IMG/VR virus record: IMGVR_UViG_2531839130_000014 | Strand: one strand, 5' to 3' | DNA from: a virus | Taxonomy: Duplodnaviria; Heunggongvirae; Uroviricota; Caudoviricetes | DNA: 36,967 nt | Part shown: piece by piece, positions 1 through 5,777 of the stretch | Position numbering within the stretch: the first letter of the stretch is position 1 | Layout: every line of letters begins with the position of its first letter | Made by a program: the position numbers and the translations under genes | Notes under the pieces: generated by a model | The model's database searches: none | Told to the model about the DNA's origin: nothing | Seen by the model: only the letters and a program-made list of their open reading frames with translations

Positions 1-1236
1 CTACGATAGCCGCGCATTCAACATGGCTACCTGTTCGTCGTTCATGTCATCAATCCACATACCGTAAATTTCATACACCATCTGCGCAGTTTCATGTCCC
101 ATCTGGCTGGCTATAAATGCCGGGTTCGCTCCTGCCGTCAACAGCCAGCAGGCAAAAGTATGCCGCGTATGGTACGGATTACGGCGGCGAATACCAGCAC
201 GTTTTACTGCTGCATTCCACCTTGCCCCCAAACTGCTTACCGAGTAATAAGGTTTCTGTTTTCCGTTACACACCCTGGGCATGAAAACAAAATGCAGTTT
301 TTGCTTTTCGGTTCTGCCGTACTCCCGATGATAAAAGGTGATTTCGCTTTTGCGATGATGCCCGGTCAGTTTGTATTGCTCCTTCAGTGCTTCAAGAGCA
401 GGCTGCAGTAATGTTACCGTCCGGATCCCGGCATTTGTTTTTGGGGGACCGAACATATCCAGTATCGTCAGGTTTCTTCTGACATTCACAGTTCCCTTCT
501 CGAAATCCACATCCTCCCACGCCAGAGCTGCCAGTTCCCCGTGACGAAGCCCGGAGTAAACGGCAAATTTCCACAAGTTCTGGCTCTGTCCTTTTTCACT
601 TTCCATTAATGCATTGAATTCTGTTCTAGATAACGGATCTGGCTTTATTCTGTTTCGCTGTAATTTTTTTACTCCTTCAAATGGTTTGTTTGATATAAAT
701 CCCGACTGATAAGCAAAACGTAACAAAGAACAGAGCAGGGCGATATAGTTATCAACTGTGCGCACTGTTCTTCCTTTTTTGTTAGATCTTGGATTATCCA
801 GGTAAAGCGTTTCTCCATGCAACAGTTCATTCCGGTAATTTAAGATATCGCTATAACGAATATGTGATATCGGGGTACTTTCAGAAATTATTATCCTGAG
901 TGTTTTTAATTGTGATTTCGTTTTCTTCATTGTGTTTGTTGTTAACTCTGTCTCTTTAATTTTTGCCCAGATATCACAAAGCTCCCCGAATGTTTTTATG
1001 ACCCTCGTTGTCACCATTTTTGCCCCAGTGCTGGACTGGGGAAAACGTCTTAAATACTCGAATTCGCCGGAATTGATTTCGTGAACTATCAACGCTCTTA
1101 AATTCCCGGCTTTTTTAATATTACTGTTAGTAACCTCCCAGCCTTTCAATGTTTCCCGACATCGTTTTCCTCGAAACATGAACCAGATGCGAATGTATTT
1201 ACCCCGAATCTCGACACCTGTTGGTAATTTAGACAT
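1..1236 (-). CDS. intR: Phage tyrosine integrase, Rac prophage IntR-like; complete 411 aa, stop codon at window positions 1-3
   Basis: 411-aa ORF whose N-terminus MSKLPTGVEIRGKYIRIWFMFRGKRCRETLKGWE matches recalled Rac IntR. The C-terminal region has tyrosine recombinase features (R..HxxR..Y region: NPYHTRHTFACWLLTAGANPAFIASQMGHETAQMVYEIYG). Confidence 0.9.
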   Translation of the reverse strand: MSKLPTGVEIRGKYIRIWFMFRGKRCRETLKGWEVTNSNIKKAGNLRALIVHEINSGEFEYLRRFPQSSTGAKMVTTRVIKTFGELCDIWAKIKETELTTNTMKKTKSQLKTLRIIISESTPISHIRYSDILNYRNELLHGETLYLDNPRSNKKGRTVRTVDNYIALLCSLLRFAYQSGFISNKPFEGVKKLQRNRIKPDPLSRTEFNALMESEKGQSQNLWKFAVYSGLRHGELAALAWEDVDFEKGTVNVRRNLTILDMFGPPKTNAGIRTVTLLQPALEALKEQYKLTGHHRKSEITFYHREYGRTEKQKLHFVFMPRVCNGKQKPYYSVSSLGARWNAAVKRAGIRRRNPYHTRHTFACWLLTAGANPAFIASQMGHETAQMVYEIYGMWIDDMNDEQVAMLNARLS

Positions 1237-1237
1237 A

Positions 1238-1453
1238 TCATGAGTCTTTGATAAACTGATTTATCTTCGGATAGTTGTACCAGATAATCCCTCGCTTGCT
1301 GTCTGGCTTACCTAAAGGAGATACTCGTTTGAAGTGAAAGCCTTCCACCCAGCAATTCTGACGGTATGCTTCAATTTGTCTGGCCCCCAGACCAGTACGA
1401 AGCATCAGACCGTATTCAACCATCCACTCTTCATTAAAAATCACTTGTGCCAT
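1238..1453 (-). CDS. ydaQ: Putative excisionase / DNA-binding protein (YdaQ/XisR-like), start taken at internal ATG ([10 protein letters not shown]...)
   Basis: Small ORF immediately upstream of the integrase on the same strand, the typical xis position. The listed ORF begins at a TTG at 1477; the ATG at 1453 is the more likely start. Confidence 0.55.
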
Positions 1454-1552
1454 CGCATCACCTCTGGCGGGCGACAATATTAGACTGAAATTGACGCCCG
1501 ACGTTGATTATTAATAATCAGCTATGAAGTTTTAATTTGAATACAATGCAAC

Positions 1553-1741
1553 TCACGAGGACAGAAGTTTCTCGCAATTAAAATTTATCAGTTTTACTTT
1601 CTGCTCTCTGGAAACGCCTGCTTCTTTTTTCCCTGAGAGCATTTTTTCGCATTCTGATTTCGTTAATTTAGATTTTGAATATCTTGTCCAGTTAGTAGGT
1701 GTGCCACCTTCCTTTTCAATAGTGGCGGTAATTTTATACAT
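1553..1741 (-). CDS. Hypothetical small protein (YdaC-like by synteny)
   Basis: ORF between the excisionase-like gene and ralR. An ATG at 1739-1741 sits 2 nt upstream of the ralR stop; the longer listed ORF (to 1813) would overlap ralR by 80 nt. Confidence 0.4.
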   Translation of the reverse strand: MYKITATIEKEGGTPTNWTRYSKSKLTKSECEKMLSGKKEAGVSREQKVKLINFNCEKLLSS

Positions 1742-1928
1742 GAACACCTCCATTATTATTTCCAGTAGTTCGTTTATTCCATCTTGCAAGTGCTTCTTTT
1801 TCACTTCCACCATAACCGGTTCGGGATTCGCATCCGTTACACTTCGCTCGGTAATATCCTGAAATGGCTTTCACCGTTACTGATGGACAACCACAAAATG
1901 GACATGGTTTGACTTTTTCATACCGCAT
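1734..1928 (-). CDS. ralR: RalR (Lar) restriction-alleviation protein / type I toxin, small Cys-rich DNA-targeting protein
   Basis: Translation MRYEKVKPCPFCGCPSVTVKAISGYYRAKCNGCESRTGYGGSEKEALARWNKRTTGNNNGGVHV closely matches recalled Rac RalR, in the expected position upstream of recT. Confidence 0.75.
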   Translation of the reverse strand: MRYEKVKPCPFCGCPSVTVKAISGYYRAKCNGCESRTGYGGSEKEALARWNKRTTGNNNGGVHV

Positions 1929-1991
1929 TGTCTTTTCTCTCATAAAATAAAGTTTTGTTATGGCGGTGAGGCTACACCGCCATAGTAAATA

Positions 1992-3044
1992 TCAGGAGCC
2001 GATATATTCTGGTTTCATATCTGTCAGTGTCGTTTTATACGCCTCATATAATTCTCCCAGATGTGGTCGTGCAGCATTCAGCGTATTTTCCAGAGCAGTA
2101 AATTTTTGTTCTGCTTCCGGATCACCTGATGAAGGCAGGTCATTTATCATCTTCTCAATACGGGCAATAGCATTGAGACGGTGATGACGCTGAACCACTT
2201 TTCCTTTAAGTTCCGTATAGAGAGCGCCAAGTGTATTTTTATGCTCTTCCACTTCCTGCCGAAGTGCTGTTGTTTCTTCGGTGCTTTGTGCCTGCTCAAT
2301 ACGTTCACGGAAAGCACTGATCCAGTTTTCCCCGGCATCCTGCTCAATAATTGTTGTTTCACGTTCCGTACGGCAGGCGGATGTGTTTTTATGTTCCTGA
2401 ACCGGATTAATGATTTTTTCCTGTGGTTCGTCCAGTTCGTCCCGGGTGTACACTCCAAGAATCACTTCAGGGCTATAAAGGCGCGCCCAGCGTTTCAGTG
2501 CCAGATAGGCAAGCTGCTGACGAGGATCATCGGCCCATAACGTTGAGTTACGTGTTCTGGCCTGCGCCAGAAGTAACTCCAGTATGCGTGGTTTGCTCTC
2601 TCCGCGTAGTGTTGCCTGGACGCGAACTCCGATCCCGTTTTCATCTGCCAGCTTCCAGCCAGGTACACGATATTCTTTCCCTTTGTCGTTCTTCCTGATT
2701 TCAAATTTCCCGATAATTTTTTCCCACGGCCCGAACCAGTCATATTCAATACGCCCGGTTAGCGGCCCACGAGTACTGATTACGGCATTAACCAGTTGCG
2801 CTTCATATCCGAGCACACCATTCACAACGAAAGTTTTCTGAGCTACTGCGTAAGGATTCATTTGCCACTGCATCGCCTGCATGGTGATGGCCATGCAGTC
2901 TGATGGATTTCCTCGGAGGTGTTCCGGTACAGTAGCCATGCCGGAAGCCATTACCTGAGAAAACGTCTGAATTGCAGCCAGAGACTGAGGGCTGAACACC
3001 GCAACATTAGAGTTAATATTTTCTTGTTGAGTTAATTCGTTCAT
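1992..3044 (-). CDS. Putative phage single-strand annealing protein (RecT/Red-beta superfamily), not the K-12 RecT allele
   Basis: 350-aa ORF directly downstream of the exonuclease gene on the same strand (recE-recT-type operon). Start at 3044 is preceded by GAGGAAGGA. The central region (NPYAVAQKTFVVNGVLGYEAQLVNAVI...) resembles the annealing-protein core; family assignment is by context and pattern, not a search. Confidence 0.5.
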   Translation of the reverse strand: MNELTQQENINSNVAVFSPQSLAAIQTFSQVMASGMATVPEHLRGNPSDCMAITMQAMQWQMNPYAVAQKTFVVNGVLGYEAQLVNAVISTRGPLTGRIEYDWFGPWEKIIGKFEIRKNDKGKEYRVPGWKLADENGIGVRVQATLRGESKPRILELLLAQARTRNSTLWADDPRQQLAYLALKRWARLYSPEVILGVYTRDELDEPQEKIINPVQEHKNTSACRTERETTIIEQDAGENWISAFRERIEQAQSTEETTALRQEVEEHKNTLGALYTELKGKVVQRHHRLNAIARIEKMINDLPSSGDPEAEQKFTALENTLNAARPHLGELYEAYKTTLTDMKPEYIGS

Positions 3045-3055
3045 TGTGTCCTTCC

Positions 3056-4728
3056 TCAGATGCTCAGTGCTTCAAGACGGCGAAGATCAAAGTCGTTTAA
3101 TTCGTCGGTATAACTTTCGGTAATCGGTGCTGGCCAGTTGTTTGTCTCCAGCGCTTCGTTTATCTGTCGTAGCGTCCGGCGATATTCCTGTCGACCAAGT
3201 TCCAGGAGTTCCTGCGAGGCTTCCACGACTGCCACCCAGTGATAGCCAGCATCTTTGTTGACGAAGATCCAGAAAAATTTGTCCAGGTTTGCCACATCGC
3301 AATACATTGCGGCGCTGAGGTGATAATCACGCTCAATAATTTCACGGTGCAGGCGATCTTTAAGTCGTTCCTGCCGCACATAACCGAGGCTGACTGACTT
3401 CACGTCAGCGCAAATGCTTTCGTATGGCAGCCGGATTTCGATATCAGGACGGACCCTAATTTCCAGCCCGGTTTCTTCATCAAACCCGAAATAGCTGATT
3501 TCAGATTTGCGATCCGGGTGGTTGAGTAGCCTTGCTGCATCGGTATTGTTTTGCAGTGCCGCGTGAATATTTTTTGCCTGTTCATACATATCCGGACTGA
3601 TAAACGTTTTCCCGGCGTTTTCTTCTTGCTGGCGTTTTTGCCAGTCCTCCAGTGTCACCAGGTCCGGGCGAATTTTCCGTGCGATTTCGGTTAATTGCTC
3701 TTTTGTGCCACTGATGTTGTAAGGCAAAGATTTAGCACGTTCTTTTTTTGCCAGTTCTGGGTCTACAGTTTCAATTTGATCCAGAAGCTGCTCCCGTGCT
3801 CCACTGGTTTTCAACAGAGGAGGGAGGCTTGCGTTGTATTCTTTAATACAGGCTTTCATTGCTGATGCTGTGTGTTTTTCCCCCTCAGGAATACGCCGAA
3901 ATTCCTCCGGAAGCGAACCGTAAAGGATGCCTGTTTCTTCGGCCCCAGCGCTTACCGACAGTGGCTGTATAAGAGTGCTGTTGTAGCTTTCGATCCACTC
4001 TTTCATCTGCTCTGGTGTCATCAGTGATGGCAGACTGGCATTATGTTTTTTAATGATGGTGATCAGTTCGTTAGAAGTAGTAACCACATATTCAGGAACC
4101 GGTACCGGAATGGCATATTCATCAGCGAATTTATCCGTTTCCAGAACATAGCTGTGAATGATCCGCCCACGCAGCAATGCATCACTTTCCTCGTTCGGGA
4201 TAGTTCCGGCAATGTGCCGCCCGTGGTAATACATCAGACTGATGCGGGCATCCTTCAGCATTGTGCTGCTTATTCCGTTGGCGGAGTGATAAACCTCGTT
4301 CGGGAGGTTTTCATAGCGACCAGGCTCGAAATATGACGGCCACATGATTTCAGTTGCTACATGAGCTGACGCTTCACCAGTTTCATCACTGCAATCGTGA
4401 TGCGGATGGTTGCCAGCGTTCTCCTTGTGCGGATGTTCAGCGCCTTCCATTTCCTCCGGATCTTTTTCCTGAGATTCATCCAGATTTTCTCCATCGAATG
4501 TTTCCTGGTATGTTGCGTCGCCCATCACCGCACCACAGTCAGGGCAGTTATCCCCGCCAGTCTGACCGCAGGCATTGCAGACTATTTCCGGTTCCCGTTG
4601 CACTACTGGCTCAGGTTGTTTCACATCCTGACTGGTTTTTTCCGTTTCTGGCTGGTTCTGGTTCACAGAATCGCGAGTCTGGATCCCCTTAAACCATTTC
4701 GGATCGTTCGGGTCGCTAATTCCGTCAA
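3056..4728 (-). pseudogene. RecE-like PD-(D/E)XK exonuclease (exodeoxyribonuclease VIII family), C-terminal 557 codons; 5' part apparently removed by the Mu-like insertion
   Basis: The frame is open from the stop at 3056 right up to the Mu-like end at 4729 with no ATG in the first ~70 flanking codons. The first four codons of the listed ORF (GTG start at 4741) are Mu-end sequence, and the next in-frame stop upstream lies inside Mu DNA (4775-4777). Nuclease-like motifs are present (EVYHSANGISSTMLKD, PDIEIR...ADVKS) plus a CxxC...CxxC cluster. Confidence 0.55.
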
Positions 4729-4900
4729 TGTATTGATTCACTTGAAGTACGAAAAAAACCGGGAGGACATTGGATTATTCGGGATTTGGCGGGATTAGAT
4801 TTAGTGGGGCTTGCAAGCCTGTAGGACAGATTTTAGCCGTTACATCTTGAAACGCGAAAGATTGTTGGAAACAGCTTTTGATTCATTAAAGACACGAAAA
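4729..4900. repeat. Mu-type left end (attL) with transposase-binding end sites (L1 at about 4733-4755; further consensus-like sites near 4826-4850 and 4879-4900)
   Basis: Matches to the MuA end-site consensus TGNTTCAYTNNAARYRCGAAAR: TGATTCACTTGAAGTACGAAAAA at the terminus and TGATTCATTAAAGACACGAAAA at 4879-4900. The 5 bp flanking the end (4724-4728, GTCAA) fit the Mu target consensus N-Y-S-R-N. Confidence 0.8.
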
Positions 4901-5067
4901 GCAATTACTTCACGCATCATTTCAAGTACAGCTTCAAAAATGCTTCAAAAACGGTAACAACCAGGCTTTCAGCAAGTGATGTGTGTCAAAAACAATCATC
5001 ACTGTTTGGGTATCTTACATATGTAATTGCCTGGAGTGAAGTTTATGTCTTAGCTATTACCTGGTTG

Positions 5068-5592
5068 TTATACAGCTTTCTTTACATCGTTTTCTCTTAC
5101 AGGGAAATTATGTTCTTTGCCTTCATACTGAGACAAAATCTCTCTCACTTTTTCCGGTGGTAATGCCTGAAGAGTTTGCAGGGTTTTCTGTTGCTCCACA
5201 GTAATCCCTAATGCCTCTAATGCCTTATCTTTACTGACAATTGTAGGCATAAGTCCTTTAATCCCTGCCACACGAATGATCTCCACAGCTGCGGCCTGCT
5301 CATCTGGTGTTAAGAAGCTCATTGCATAAATTAGCCTCTCATCAACTGTATGGGCGATTGATGTATGCACTGGTTTATCAGAAAGTGAGGCTCCTTTAAT
5401 GGCCCTGCGTGTTTCTTCTGGCAGACTGTTGATGTGATACTCATAAGCGACACCTTTCCCACCGTGACGCTGACGTTTTACCCAATCTTCCGCCACAGCT
5501 TTCCTGGTAATGTTAGTCGCCAACTTTGGTACACCAGGCATCCCTTCCAGCTCTTTCGCATTAAACCATTCTTTGATTTCAAAAGACATCAT
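5068..5592 (-). CDS. c: Mu-type lysogenic repressor (c / Repc-like)
   Basis: Leftward 174-aa ORF next to the left end. Its N-terminus ([60 protein letters not shown]) is clearly homologous to the N-terminus of the adjacent transposase ([59 protein letters not shown]), the known Mu repressor/MuA enhancer-binding relationship. Confidence 0.85.
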   Translation of the reverse strand: MMSFEIKEWFNAKELEGMPGVPKLATNITRKAVAEDWVKRQRHGGKGVAYEYHINSLPEETRRAIKGASLSDKPVHTSIAHTVDERLIYAMSFLTPDEQAAAVEIIRVAGIKGLMPTIVSKDKALEALGITVEQQKTLQTLQALPPEKVREILSQYEGKEHNFPVRENDVKKAV

Positions 5593-5777
5593 TTAAAATC
5601 CTAGTGATTTCAATAGAGACAAAATAAATTCATATAAAAATCATGCTGTTATATGAAATCATGGCAAATCCTTTCAAATCACTATTGATTTGAAAGTGAT
5701 TCCACACTACATTGCACGATATGCCGTGAGCTACTTTATAGCGTAGCTCGCGGGGGAATCTGAAAGGATTACATGAA
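5593..5777. promoter_or_regulatory. Divergent early control region: operators, Pe/Pc promoters and expected transpositional enhancer (IAS)
   Basis: 185-bp AT-rich spacer between divergent c and ner. Perfect 11-4-11 palindrome CTTTCAAATCA-CTAT-TGATTTGAAAG at 5671-5696; related half-sites TGATTTCAA at about 5602 and AATCCTTTCA / TGAAAGGATT at 5667 and 5762. It lies about 0.86-1.05 kb from the left end, as in Mu. Confidence 0.6.

Follow-up and report, generated by a model that had tools for sequence, protein, structure and literature searches.

A D108-type Mu prophage inserted in a Rac-family recE gene, and the predicted fate of leftward repressor transcription at its left end

Results

The stretch of DNA analysed, referred to here as the window, is the whole 36,967-nt IMG/VR record IMGVR_UViG_2531839130_000014. 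Around the junction of interest, it holds the following genes and sequences:

1557..1735, plus strand: gene for the RalA antitoxin sRNA, antisense partner of ralR (RF02694, 219.6 bits, E=3e-53)
1734..1943, minus strand: ralR/Lar restriction-alleviation toxin gene (PF14354)
1992..3044, minus strand: gene for a RecT-family annealing protein of 350 aa (PF03837, E=6e-42)
3056..4741, minus strand: recE' ORF with a PDDEXK domain (PF12684, E=3e-14)
4724..4728, plus strand: host 5 bp adjoining the Mu left end (GTCAA), as read from the sequence
4729..4904, plus strand: Mu/D108 left end (attL), with the terminal TGTATTG at 4729
5068..5592, minus strand: Mu/D108-type repressor gene c, 174 aa (PF02316, E=3e-51)

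As the original prediction had it, c is transcribed leftward (5592→5068) toward the Mu end, with recE', recT, and ralR beyond it on the same strand, and all of its coordinates hold.

The left end of a Muvirus was recognised by a terminal 5'-TG, the MuA-binding sites L1-L3, and near-identity to a sequenced Muvirus, and the sequence from 4729 bears these marks. The first base of the Mu terminal TGTATTGATTCAC is exactly 4729, which corresponds to position 1 of D108 (GQ357916), and the two sequences are 99.1% identical over 1372 nt. The annotated MuA-binding sites at D108 positions 11-27 and 156-172 map to window positions 4739-4755 and 4884-4900, and the attL sequence is near-invariant among Mu, D108, and SfMu. 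The gene order is likewise that of a Muvirus, with c leftward and then ner-A-B rightward, as seen from the domains HTH_Tnp_Mu_1, HTH_35, DDE_2/Mu-transpos_C, and Phage-MuB_C. The Mu target consensus is N-Y-S-R-N, and the GTCAA next to the left end fits it; this is the left copy only, as the source contig ends within the prophage tail-fibre gene.

The recE'/Mu junction is natural and no assembly oddity of the window, because the exact 561-aa fused recE' ORF is on record in four contigs with the same neighbours, one of them being APYJ01000143.1 of the E. coli draft assembly GCA_000357145.2. The junction was found in 0 of 5,426 complete RefSeq E. coli genomes, and a search of 596 Gb of genome contigs with the 15-mer ATCTTTCGCGTTTCA, a pattern too short, retrieved chance matches only, in unrelated taxa.

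Beyond the junction lies a module of the Rac type, with a RecT-family annealase and a RecE-type PD-(D/E)XK domain bearing the catalytic His, Asp, and Asp-x-Lys, in the Rac synteny of ttcA and intR-xisR-(rcbA/RalA)-ralR-recT-recE. The ralR start used in RefSeq relatives corresponds to window position 1928. The recT gene is intact, and its product is 98.6% identical to RecT of the WP_001004412 type; a BLASTP comparison returned no similarity between it and K-12 RecT. Of a 1040-aa RecE, positions 3056-4728 retain the 557 C-terminal codons, with 96% identity to the intact recE in CP080235 (residues 482-1040), and the first 13 nt of the ORF (GTGAATCAATACA, 4741-4729) are Mu end sequence. The insertion interrupts recE at a point matching K-12 residue ~466, and the retained part corresponds to K-12 residues ~466-866, with the whole nuclease domain present. 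This domain matches structure 3H4R (E=8e-7), keeps the catalytic residues as H, D, and DVK, and is only 29% identical to K-12 RecE. We consider that the locus probably arose when a D108-type Mu prophage transposed, in the ordinary way, into a Rac-family recE in a natural E. coli. The recE'-recT-ralR genes are now ~37 kb from their native promoter.

The window's repressor differs from D108 c by two amino acids (N50Y and V80A), and several other natural prophages carry a c that is 100% identical to it. The best sigma-70-like match upstream of c is the following:

5640..5667, minus strand: candidate repressor promoter (Pc/PcM), TTGCCA-16-CATGAT

This candidate matches the consensus at 9 of 12 positions in the promoter scan, differs from D108 at 5664/5665, and lies ~900 nt inside the Mu end; over the region as a whole, promoter-like matches were no more frequent than in its shuffles. 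The Mu repressor promoter Pc is weak and autoregulated. That it fires is to be expected, since a lysogen with apparently intact A and B must express c continuously. Rep has been found to bind the Mu ends, and PcM to drive c (PMC3820752). A promoter created by the junction, or one directed outward from the Mu end, was also considered and rejected, as no minus-strand promoter-like site lies between 5100 and 1992; the only promoter-like match nearby (5136-5107, inside c) is at chance level.

The original prediction saw no obvious intrinsic terminator between the c stop and the Mu end, and this is true for canonical terminators, here defined by a short-loop G+C-rich hairpin followed at once by a 7-9-nt U-tract. 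A consensus scan of the minus strand from 5800 down to 1 returned no terminator-like site, and a relaxed scan returned weak hairpins only (-5 to -7.5 kcal/mol) beside short U-runs, so that neither scan places a canonical intrinsic terminator between c and ralR. The consensus-scanned stretch takes in minus-strand positions 4742-5067, where a predicted helix and a rut-like tract, each described below, are present.

Within Mu, c is followed by a 3' untranslated stretch of 339 nt with stops in all three frames. A helix and U-runs directly 3' of the c stop had been overlooked by the original prediction:

4947..5082, minus strand: conserved element of the c 3'UTR, containing a long-range helix (folding and lineage comparison)

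The 5' arm of the helix (5082-5060) consists of the last c codons, the stop codon, and CAACCAGG, and the 3' arm (4965-4947) of CCUGGUUGUUACCGUUUUU; the two enclose ~95 nt of variable hairpins, and GAAGCAUUUUUGAAG comes next. The helix is closed in both the MFE and the centroid folds and recurs in all 10 sequence variants compared, which represent five lineages, one of them with different arm sequences. Its cells are paired in 94% of cases, versus 22-55% in slid controls. Three compensatory pairs were counted, and a single lineage accounts for all of them; the observed percent paired and compensatory changes were equalled in 24-53 of 500 shuffles. RNAalifold, run on a MAFFT alignment of the helix region, gave a covariation term near zero. 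The covariation rests on five lineages, since neither a metagenome scan with the c-protein alignment nor a viral scan seeded with a divergent repressor (L148) yielded further c 3'UTR lineages, and Rfam returned no match in the c-attL region. The pairing is high, but because of the near-zero RNAalifold term and the weak shuffle statistics we do not claim the helix as proven.

We weighed the idea that the helix and its U-runs (5082-4944) form a dedicated, non-canonical terminator or insulator, which would stop c transcription before attL, and we judge it to be unlikely. The conservation of both arms around a divergent 95-nt interior argues for it, as do the presence of the helix in every lineage and the conserved (U)UUUGAA motifs 3' of it. 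In L165, a distant c homologue, the equivalent position directly 3' of the stop is occupied by a textbook GC-hairpin terminator, which fits the idea that such phages insulate their left end. Transcription read-through across Mu ends has also been reported to disturb transpososome assembly, hence the terminators in mini-Mu vectors (PMC3145075). However, the c 3'UTR element lacks the features that define an intrinsic terminator and is called by neither scan: its branched loop is ~95 nt long, the base of its stem is A/U-rich, 3 nt separate the stem from a U5 run (U3-4 in other lineages), and this U-run is predicted to pair with Lys codons of c. Because of the A/U-rich base and the mere 3-5 U after it, the helix may not terminate at all. 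The covariation statistics are weak, and other roles are conceivable for the helix, such as stabilising the 3' end of the mRNA or affecting the termination of c translation. Within the searchable literature, we found no paper that maps where the c transcript of Mu or D108 ends, none that describes transcription passing out of the Mu left end, and nothing on tmRNA and the Mu repressor.

A C-rich, G-poor, unstructured, and untranslated tract over attL, also overlooked by the original prediction, is the next feature that the leftward transcript would meet, and a run of seven U follows it:

4761..4840, minus strand: candidate Rho utilisation (rut) site, a C-rich/G-poor untranslated tract of the leftward transcript, called from composition
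4752..4758, minus strand: U7 run, possible pause site, just 3' of the C-rich stretch, with GTG 4741 lying 11 nt farther downstream

With a rut site taken to be ~80 nt of C-rich, G-poor, YC-rich, unstructured, and untranslated RNA, the tract at 4761..4840 has the expected composition. Its 80 nt hold 29 C, 10 G, and 21 YC dimers, and it ranks in the top 0.2-0.3% among all 80-nt windows on both strands of the 37-kb window (top 0.26% by YC count). Its unpaired probability of 0.67 is the highest, making it the least structured segment, and it has stops in all frames. No other stretch nearby looks as much like a Rho site, and attL is a strong rut candidate on the leftward transcript. The U7 run (4758-4752) was rejected as an intrinsic terminator, having no adjacent hairpin. 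Mu insertions are classically strongly polar, and Cardinale et al. in 2008 reportedly found that Rho silences transcription of the Rac prophage in K-12.

We then turn to whether a transcript that crossed this region could be translated. The recE' ORF is open from a GTG at 4741, which lies in the Mu end and lacks an SD (-2.4 kcal/mol); an in-frame TAA stands upstream at 4777, and an open frame leaves the Mu end over 12 codons and continues into recE'. A second candidate start lies inside recE':

4448..4457, minus strand: GGAGGAAATG, internal in-frame ATG 4450 with a strong SD 2 nt away (start/SD analysis and alignment)

ATG 4450 is codon 98, and its counterpart in K-12 RecE is a Met near residue 563; it aligns with the Met that opens the K-12 564-866 domain, and its GGAGG stands at 2-nt spacing. 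No in-frame recE' start has a properly spaced SD, and the remaining starts are all weak. The recT gene has its own RBS, GAGGAAGG, which overlaps the recE stop and forms a correctly spaced SD duplex of -8.3 kcal/mol. Translation of recT does not depend on that of recE', and even low RecT levels have measurable annealing activity.

The original prediction went on to propose possible sbcA-like activation by transcription from Pc across the Mu left end; spelled out, this would yield active, N-terminally truncated RecE' (from GTG 4741 or ATG 4450), RecT, and RalR, as a constitutive module tied to lysogeny. In E. coli K-12, sbcA activation of the Rac recET genes occurs through promoter-supplying deletions, point mutations, and Tn5 insertions, the deletions and Tn5 insertions acting via an upstream promoter, and RecE C-terminal fragments are active. 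The geometry at our locus agrees with this proposal: c is co-oriented with recE'-recT-ralR, no canonical terminator intervenes, the frame is open from the Mu end into a complete nuclease domain with its catalytic residues, and recT is intact with a good RBS. The K-12 RecE domain 564-866, which begins at the Met aligned with ATG 4450, replaces the full-length protein genetically (PMC11611040), and on this analogy the truncated RecE' may be an active nuclease. The analogy is limited by the 29% identity of the nuclease domain and the lack of BLASTP similarity between the RecT proteins, both being of another subtype than in K-12. For productive read-through and translation the proposal lacks support, and the sequence argues against them, given the structured element 3' of the c stop, the rut-like tract and U7 within the 339-nt untranslated leader, and the absence of a well-spaced SD for recE'. 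The weakness and autoregulation of Pc and the polarity of Mu insertions in general speak against it as well. Beyond the geometry, nothing was found in support of sbcA-like activation, and we regard such a module as very unlikely.

A more modest version is that a few transcripts escape attenuation and that recT is translated while recE' is not, which would give an annealase for oligo-recombination without exonuclease VIII. The contrast between the well-spaced recT SD and the lack of a usable one for recE' favours this, as does the 2 kb free of canonical terminators. Nevertheless, ~2 kb of un- or poorly translated RNA would favour Rho termination and decay, and the promoter scan detected no minus-strand promoter-like site inside recE' from which recT might otherwise be served. 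We hold this outcome to be decidedly unlikely.

Discussion

The explanation that we favour, and think probable, is a polar Mu insertion which cuts recE'-recT-ralR off from its own promoter, and from which an sbcA-like phenotype is not expected. Under this explanation, most Pc transcripts that pass the c stop would be lost before they become useful. They would first meet the conserved, stable 3'UTR structure and its short U-runs, and would then have to cross the 339 nt of untranslated RNA, whose last 80 nt, C-rich, G-poor, and unstructured, and the U7 after them have the features of Rho loading and pausing. Those entering the recE' frame would probably be left unshielded from Rho, since ribosomes are unlikely to load efficiently there. 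At most, a trace of RecT would be expected, owing to the good RBS that recT itself carries. As the RecE nuclease domain and recT are intact, low-level expression of the recombination genes is conceivable.

The locus resembles the sbcA strains of K-12 in its gene set and order, with recE-recT-ralR beside xisR-intR-ttcA, in an upstream rearrangement that puts a foreign promoter on the same strand, and in the K-12 finding that the RecE N-terminus is dispensable. It differs in that the promoter is here ~0.9 kb off, with the whole of c, a structured 3'UTR, and attL in between, in that recE' is not fused in frame to any translated gene, and in the subtype of the nuclease domain and RecT. A search of openly readable text found nothing on sbcA allele structure. 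The locus also resembles classical polar Mu/D108 insertions, with a bona fide Muvirus left end, an interrupted operon gene, and 5 flanking bp that fit the consensus. In contrast to those insertions, the target is itself a prophage gene, and by its orientation the insertion happens to bring the genes downstream into line with the one Mu promoter that is active in lysogeny.

Outward promoters of transposable elements (IS10 pOUT, IS50/Tn5, and the IS1/IS2/IS3 hybrid promoters) offer a further comparison, as a mobile element there feeds transcription to a silent neighbour; however, only tens of bases separate them from the end of the element, whereas the candidate here is ~900 nt inside. Rho-dependent polarity and the silencing of acquired DNA by Rho, including that of Rac, is similar in that C-rich/G-poor unstructured RNA stands upstream of a poorly translated prophage ORF, but in our case this is predicted from base composition only.

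If read-through were true, a cryptic recombination system would have come under the lysogeny promoter of a transposable phage. This would be nature's equivalent of the sbcA mutations known from the laboratory, and strains could differ in recombination and recombineering proficiency on account of it. A related proposal is that the only lysogeny-active Mu promoter drives a second, defective prophage's RecT (and RecE' from ATG 4450) at a low but functional level, which would tie recombination to Mu lysogeny, and, separately, that the helix at the c stop is an undescribed Mu-type RNA element; we consider this very doubtful. Such a helix could serve as an insulator or terminator, or as a regulator of how the repressor C-terminus is formed. 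As it stands, the locus is mainly a clean natural case of one prophage inactivated by the Mu-type insertion of another, and the helix and the candidate rut site over attL suggest how Mu-type phages may keep repressor transcription from crossing their left end.

A D108-type prophage within recE of a Rac-family prophage

The window opens with 4.7 kb from a Rac-family prophage, namely its integrase end, with all protein-coding genes on the minus strand, and from 4729 rightward the sequence is that of a D108-type Muvirus, 99.1% identical to D108 and beginning at D108 position 1. The locus adds one more example each of two familiar things, Muvirus insertion and the Rac-type recET-ralR module, and the coordinates in the original prediction are all correct. 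The features concerned are the following:

1-1236, minus strand: intR
1238-1477, minus strand: xisR
minus strand: DUF1187 (rcbA-like) ORF
1557-1735, plus strand: RalA antitoxin sRNA, antisense (Rfam RF02694, 219.6 bits)
1734-1943, minus strand: ralR/Lar
1992-3044, minus strand: RecT-family gene, 350 aa
3056-4741, minus strand: recE', the ORF left after the insertion, with a PDDEXK nuclease domain at its C-terminus
5592 to 5068, leftward: c, the Mu-type repressor gene
Also in the D108-type prophage: ner, A (662 aa) and B (312 aa)

An uninterrupted counterpart of the 4.7-kb segment, about 98% identical and adjoining ttcA, is found in at least 136 complete E. coli genomes; in one of these, CP080235, the intact recE is 3123 nt long and encodes 1040 aa. 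The insertion splits a Val codon between bases 1 and 2, at about residue 484 of this 1040-aa RecE, corresponding to about residue 466 of K-12 RecE. The Mu target consensus is N-Y-S-R-N, and the host pentamer GTCAA at the left junction agrees with it. Four contigs on record contain the exact fused 561-aa ORF, and in one of them, APYJ01000143.1 of the E. coli draft assembly GCA_000357145.2, the neighbours are identical; the junction is absent from complete RefSeq E. coli genomes. APYJ01000143.1 terminates within the prophage tail-fibre gene, in the neighbourhood of the invertible G region, which places the right end of the prophage, together with the N-terminal half of recE, on another contig. 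The window seems to represent the last 37 kb of APYJ01000143.1. The RalA gene is intact and faces the DUF1187/ralR overlap, and the RalR/RalA type I toxin-antitoxin pair is thus complete downstream of the insertion.

Transcription beyond the repressor gene

The original prediction was that read-through from the repressor promoter could activate the truncated recE'-recT module in the manner of sbcA. Four features define an operon activated in this way: an active upstream promoter, no termination, a translatable nuclease ORF, and activity. Bearing on the first and favouring the proposal, A and B are apparently intact, which implies that c is expressed in the host and hence that the repressor promoter fires. 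The -35-like hexamer upstream of c is TTGCCA, versus TTATCA in D108 (the difference lies at 5664-5665), and is nearer the consensus. The repressor differs from that of D108 by N50Y and V80A, and its allele is shared, at 100% identity, with several other natural prophages.

The absence of an obvious intrinsic terminator was borne out: a consensus scan of the minus strand, run from the operator region as far as intR, finds none, and a relaxed scan yields only weak hairpins (-5 to -7.5 kcal/mol) beside short U-runs. Directly after the c stop, a long-range helix is predicted in the leftward RNA (4947-5082, minus strand). Its 5' arm (5082-5060) consists of the last c codons, the stop codon and CAACCAGG, and pairs with CCUGGUUGUUACCGUUUUU (4965-4947) around an interior of about 95 nt containing smaller hairpins; GAAGCAUUUUUGAAG comes next. 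The helix closes in both the MFE and centroid folds, with z = -3.0 for the D108-type element. The two arms are conserved across Mu, D108, SfMu and two more lineages, in contrast to the divergent interior. The five lineages keeping the helix also include L014/L154 and L148, further Mu-type lineages; in L148, whose repressor homologue is only 57% identical, the helix is retained with different arm sequences. Pairing holds in 94% of cells, versus 22-55% in slid controls. Compensatory pairs number only three, all from the L148 lineage, and the shuffle control is weak, with 24-53 of 500 shuffles equalling the observed percent paired and compensatory changes. No Rfam family matches the element.

As an intrinsic terminator the helix was rejected, given its huge branched loop, a stem whose base is A/U-rich and a run of no more than 3-5 U. 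It might act as an insulator, stabilise the mRNA 3' end or regulate translation termination. Mu induction depends on tmRNA and the repressor C-terminus. No published mapping of the c transcript 3' end was found in the literature. A canonical terminator after c is missing in the enterobacterial Mu/D108 group and present in L165, a distant Mu-type lineage from a GC-rich host (repressor homologue with 31% identity), where a textbook A-tract/GC-hairpin/U-tract occupies the same position immediately after the repressor gene (L165:1525-1580).

Nearer the junction, the final 80 nt of untranslated RNA inside Mu (4840-4761, minus strand) contain 29 C, 10 G and 21 YC dimers, and both the C/G composition and the YC count fall in the top 0.2-0.3% of every 80-nt window on both strands of the 37-kb window. 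Within the leader this tract has the least structure, all three frames are closed from the c stop to the Mu end, and a U7 run follows at 4758-4752. In composition, such features are characteristic of a Rho loading site with a pause after it, making the tract a candidate rut site. The C-rich tract, which is the Mu attL region read leftward, is conserved in an alignment of Mu, D108 and SfMu, and any transcript exiting a Mu-type left end would bear such a rut-like tract.

Translation and coding capacity of the retained module

The recE' frame is open after an in-frame TAA at 4777. Its first start, GTG 4741, lies within the Mu end and has no Shine-Dalgarno sequence (-2.4 kcal/mol); a strong one occurs only before ATG 4450 (GGAGG, -9.5 kcal/mol), at a spacing of 2 nt, far under the optimum. 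The recT gene has GAGGAAGG at the correct spacing (-8.3 kcal/mol).

In favour of sbcA-like activation, the retained RecE segment keeps the whole nuclease domain, which aligns to 3H4R (the K-12 RecE crystal-structure domain) with the catalytic His, Asp and Asp-Val-Lys conserved. Furthermore, ATG 4450 matches in alignment the Met opening the K-12 RecE 564-866 domain, which can genetically replace full-length RecE (PMC11611040). However, identity to K-12 RecE across the nuclease domain is only 29%, and BLASTP finds no similarity between the 350-aa RecT and the 269-aa K-12 RecT, so the K-12 truncation data serve as an analogy. The likeness of this locus to sbcA activation is one of geometry and goes no further.

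Expected effect of the insertion

We instead consider the insertion most likely to be polar. It separates recE'-recT-ralR from the native promoter, now about 37 kb distant. Transcripts from the repressor promoter that pass the c stop would meet a structured 3'UTR and may then run into repressor bound at attL, the Mu left end; the repressor, Rep, binds Mu ends (PMC3820752). The ribosome-free C-rich tract would next be exposed to Rho, and any remaining transcripts would finally enter the poorly initiated recE' ORF. Given this series of obstacles, strong attenuation is expected at or shortly after the junction, and, on sequence grounds, recT would be reached by a trickle of transcripts at most. 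A polar effect would fit the classical polarity of Mu insertions, the silencing of Rac by Rho in K-12 and the terminators in mini-Mu vectors. Such vectors carry terminators, with the view that read-through transcription could disturb transpososome assembly (PMC3145075). That the recombination functions are coupled to Mu lysogeny, and/or that the c 3'UTR holds a new RNA element, seems to us improbable.

Relationships of the recombination module

Compared with K-12 Rac, the recombination module (1992-4728) is mosaic. The N-terminal two-thirds of RecE are K-12-like, with 66% identity as far as residue 734, and complete E. coli genomes carrying the alternative RecE nuclease/RecT module number at least 136. 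GenBank PP818812.1 (Actinobacillus phage vB_Apl-pPE4) also has a recE-recT segment, 96% identical over 3.2 kb. An E. coli Rac-type recE-recT is unexpected in a Pasteurellaceae phage and could be explained by host misassignment, contamination or recent transfer.
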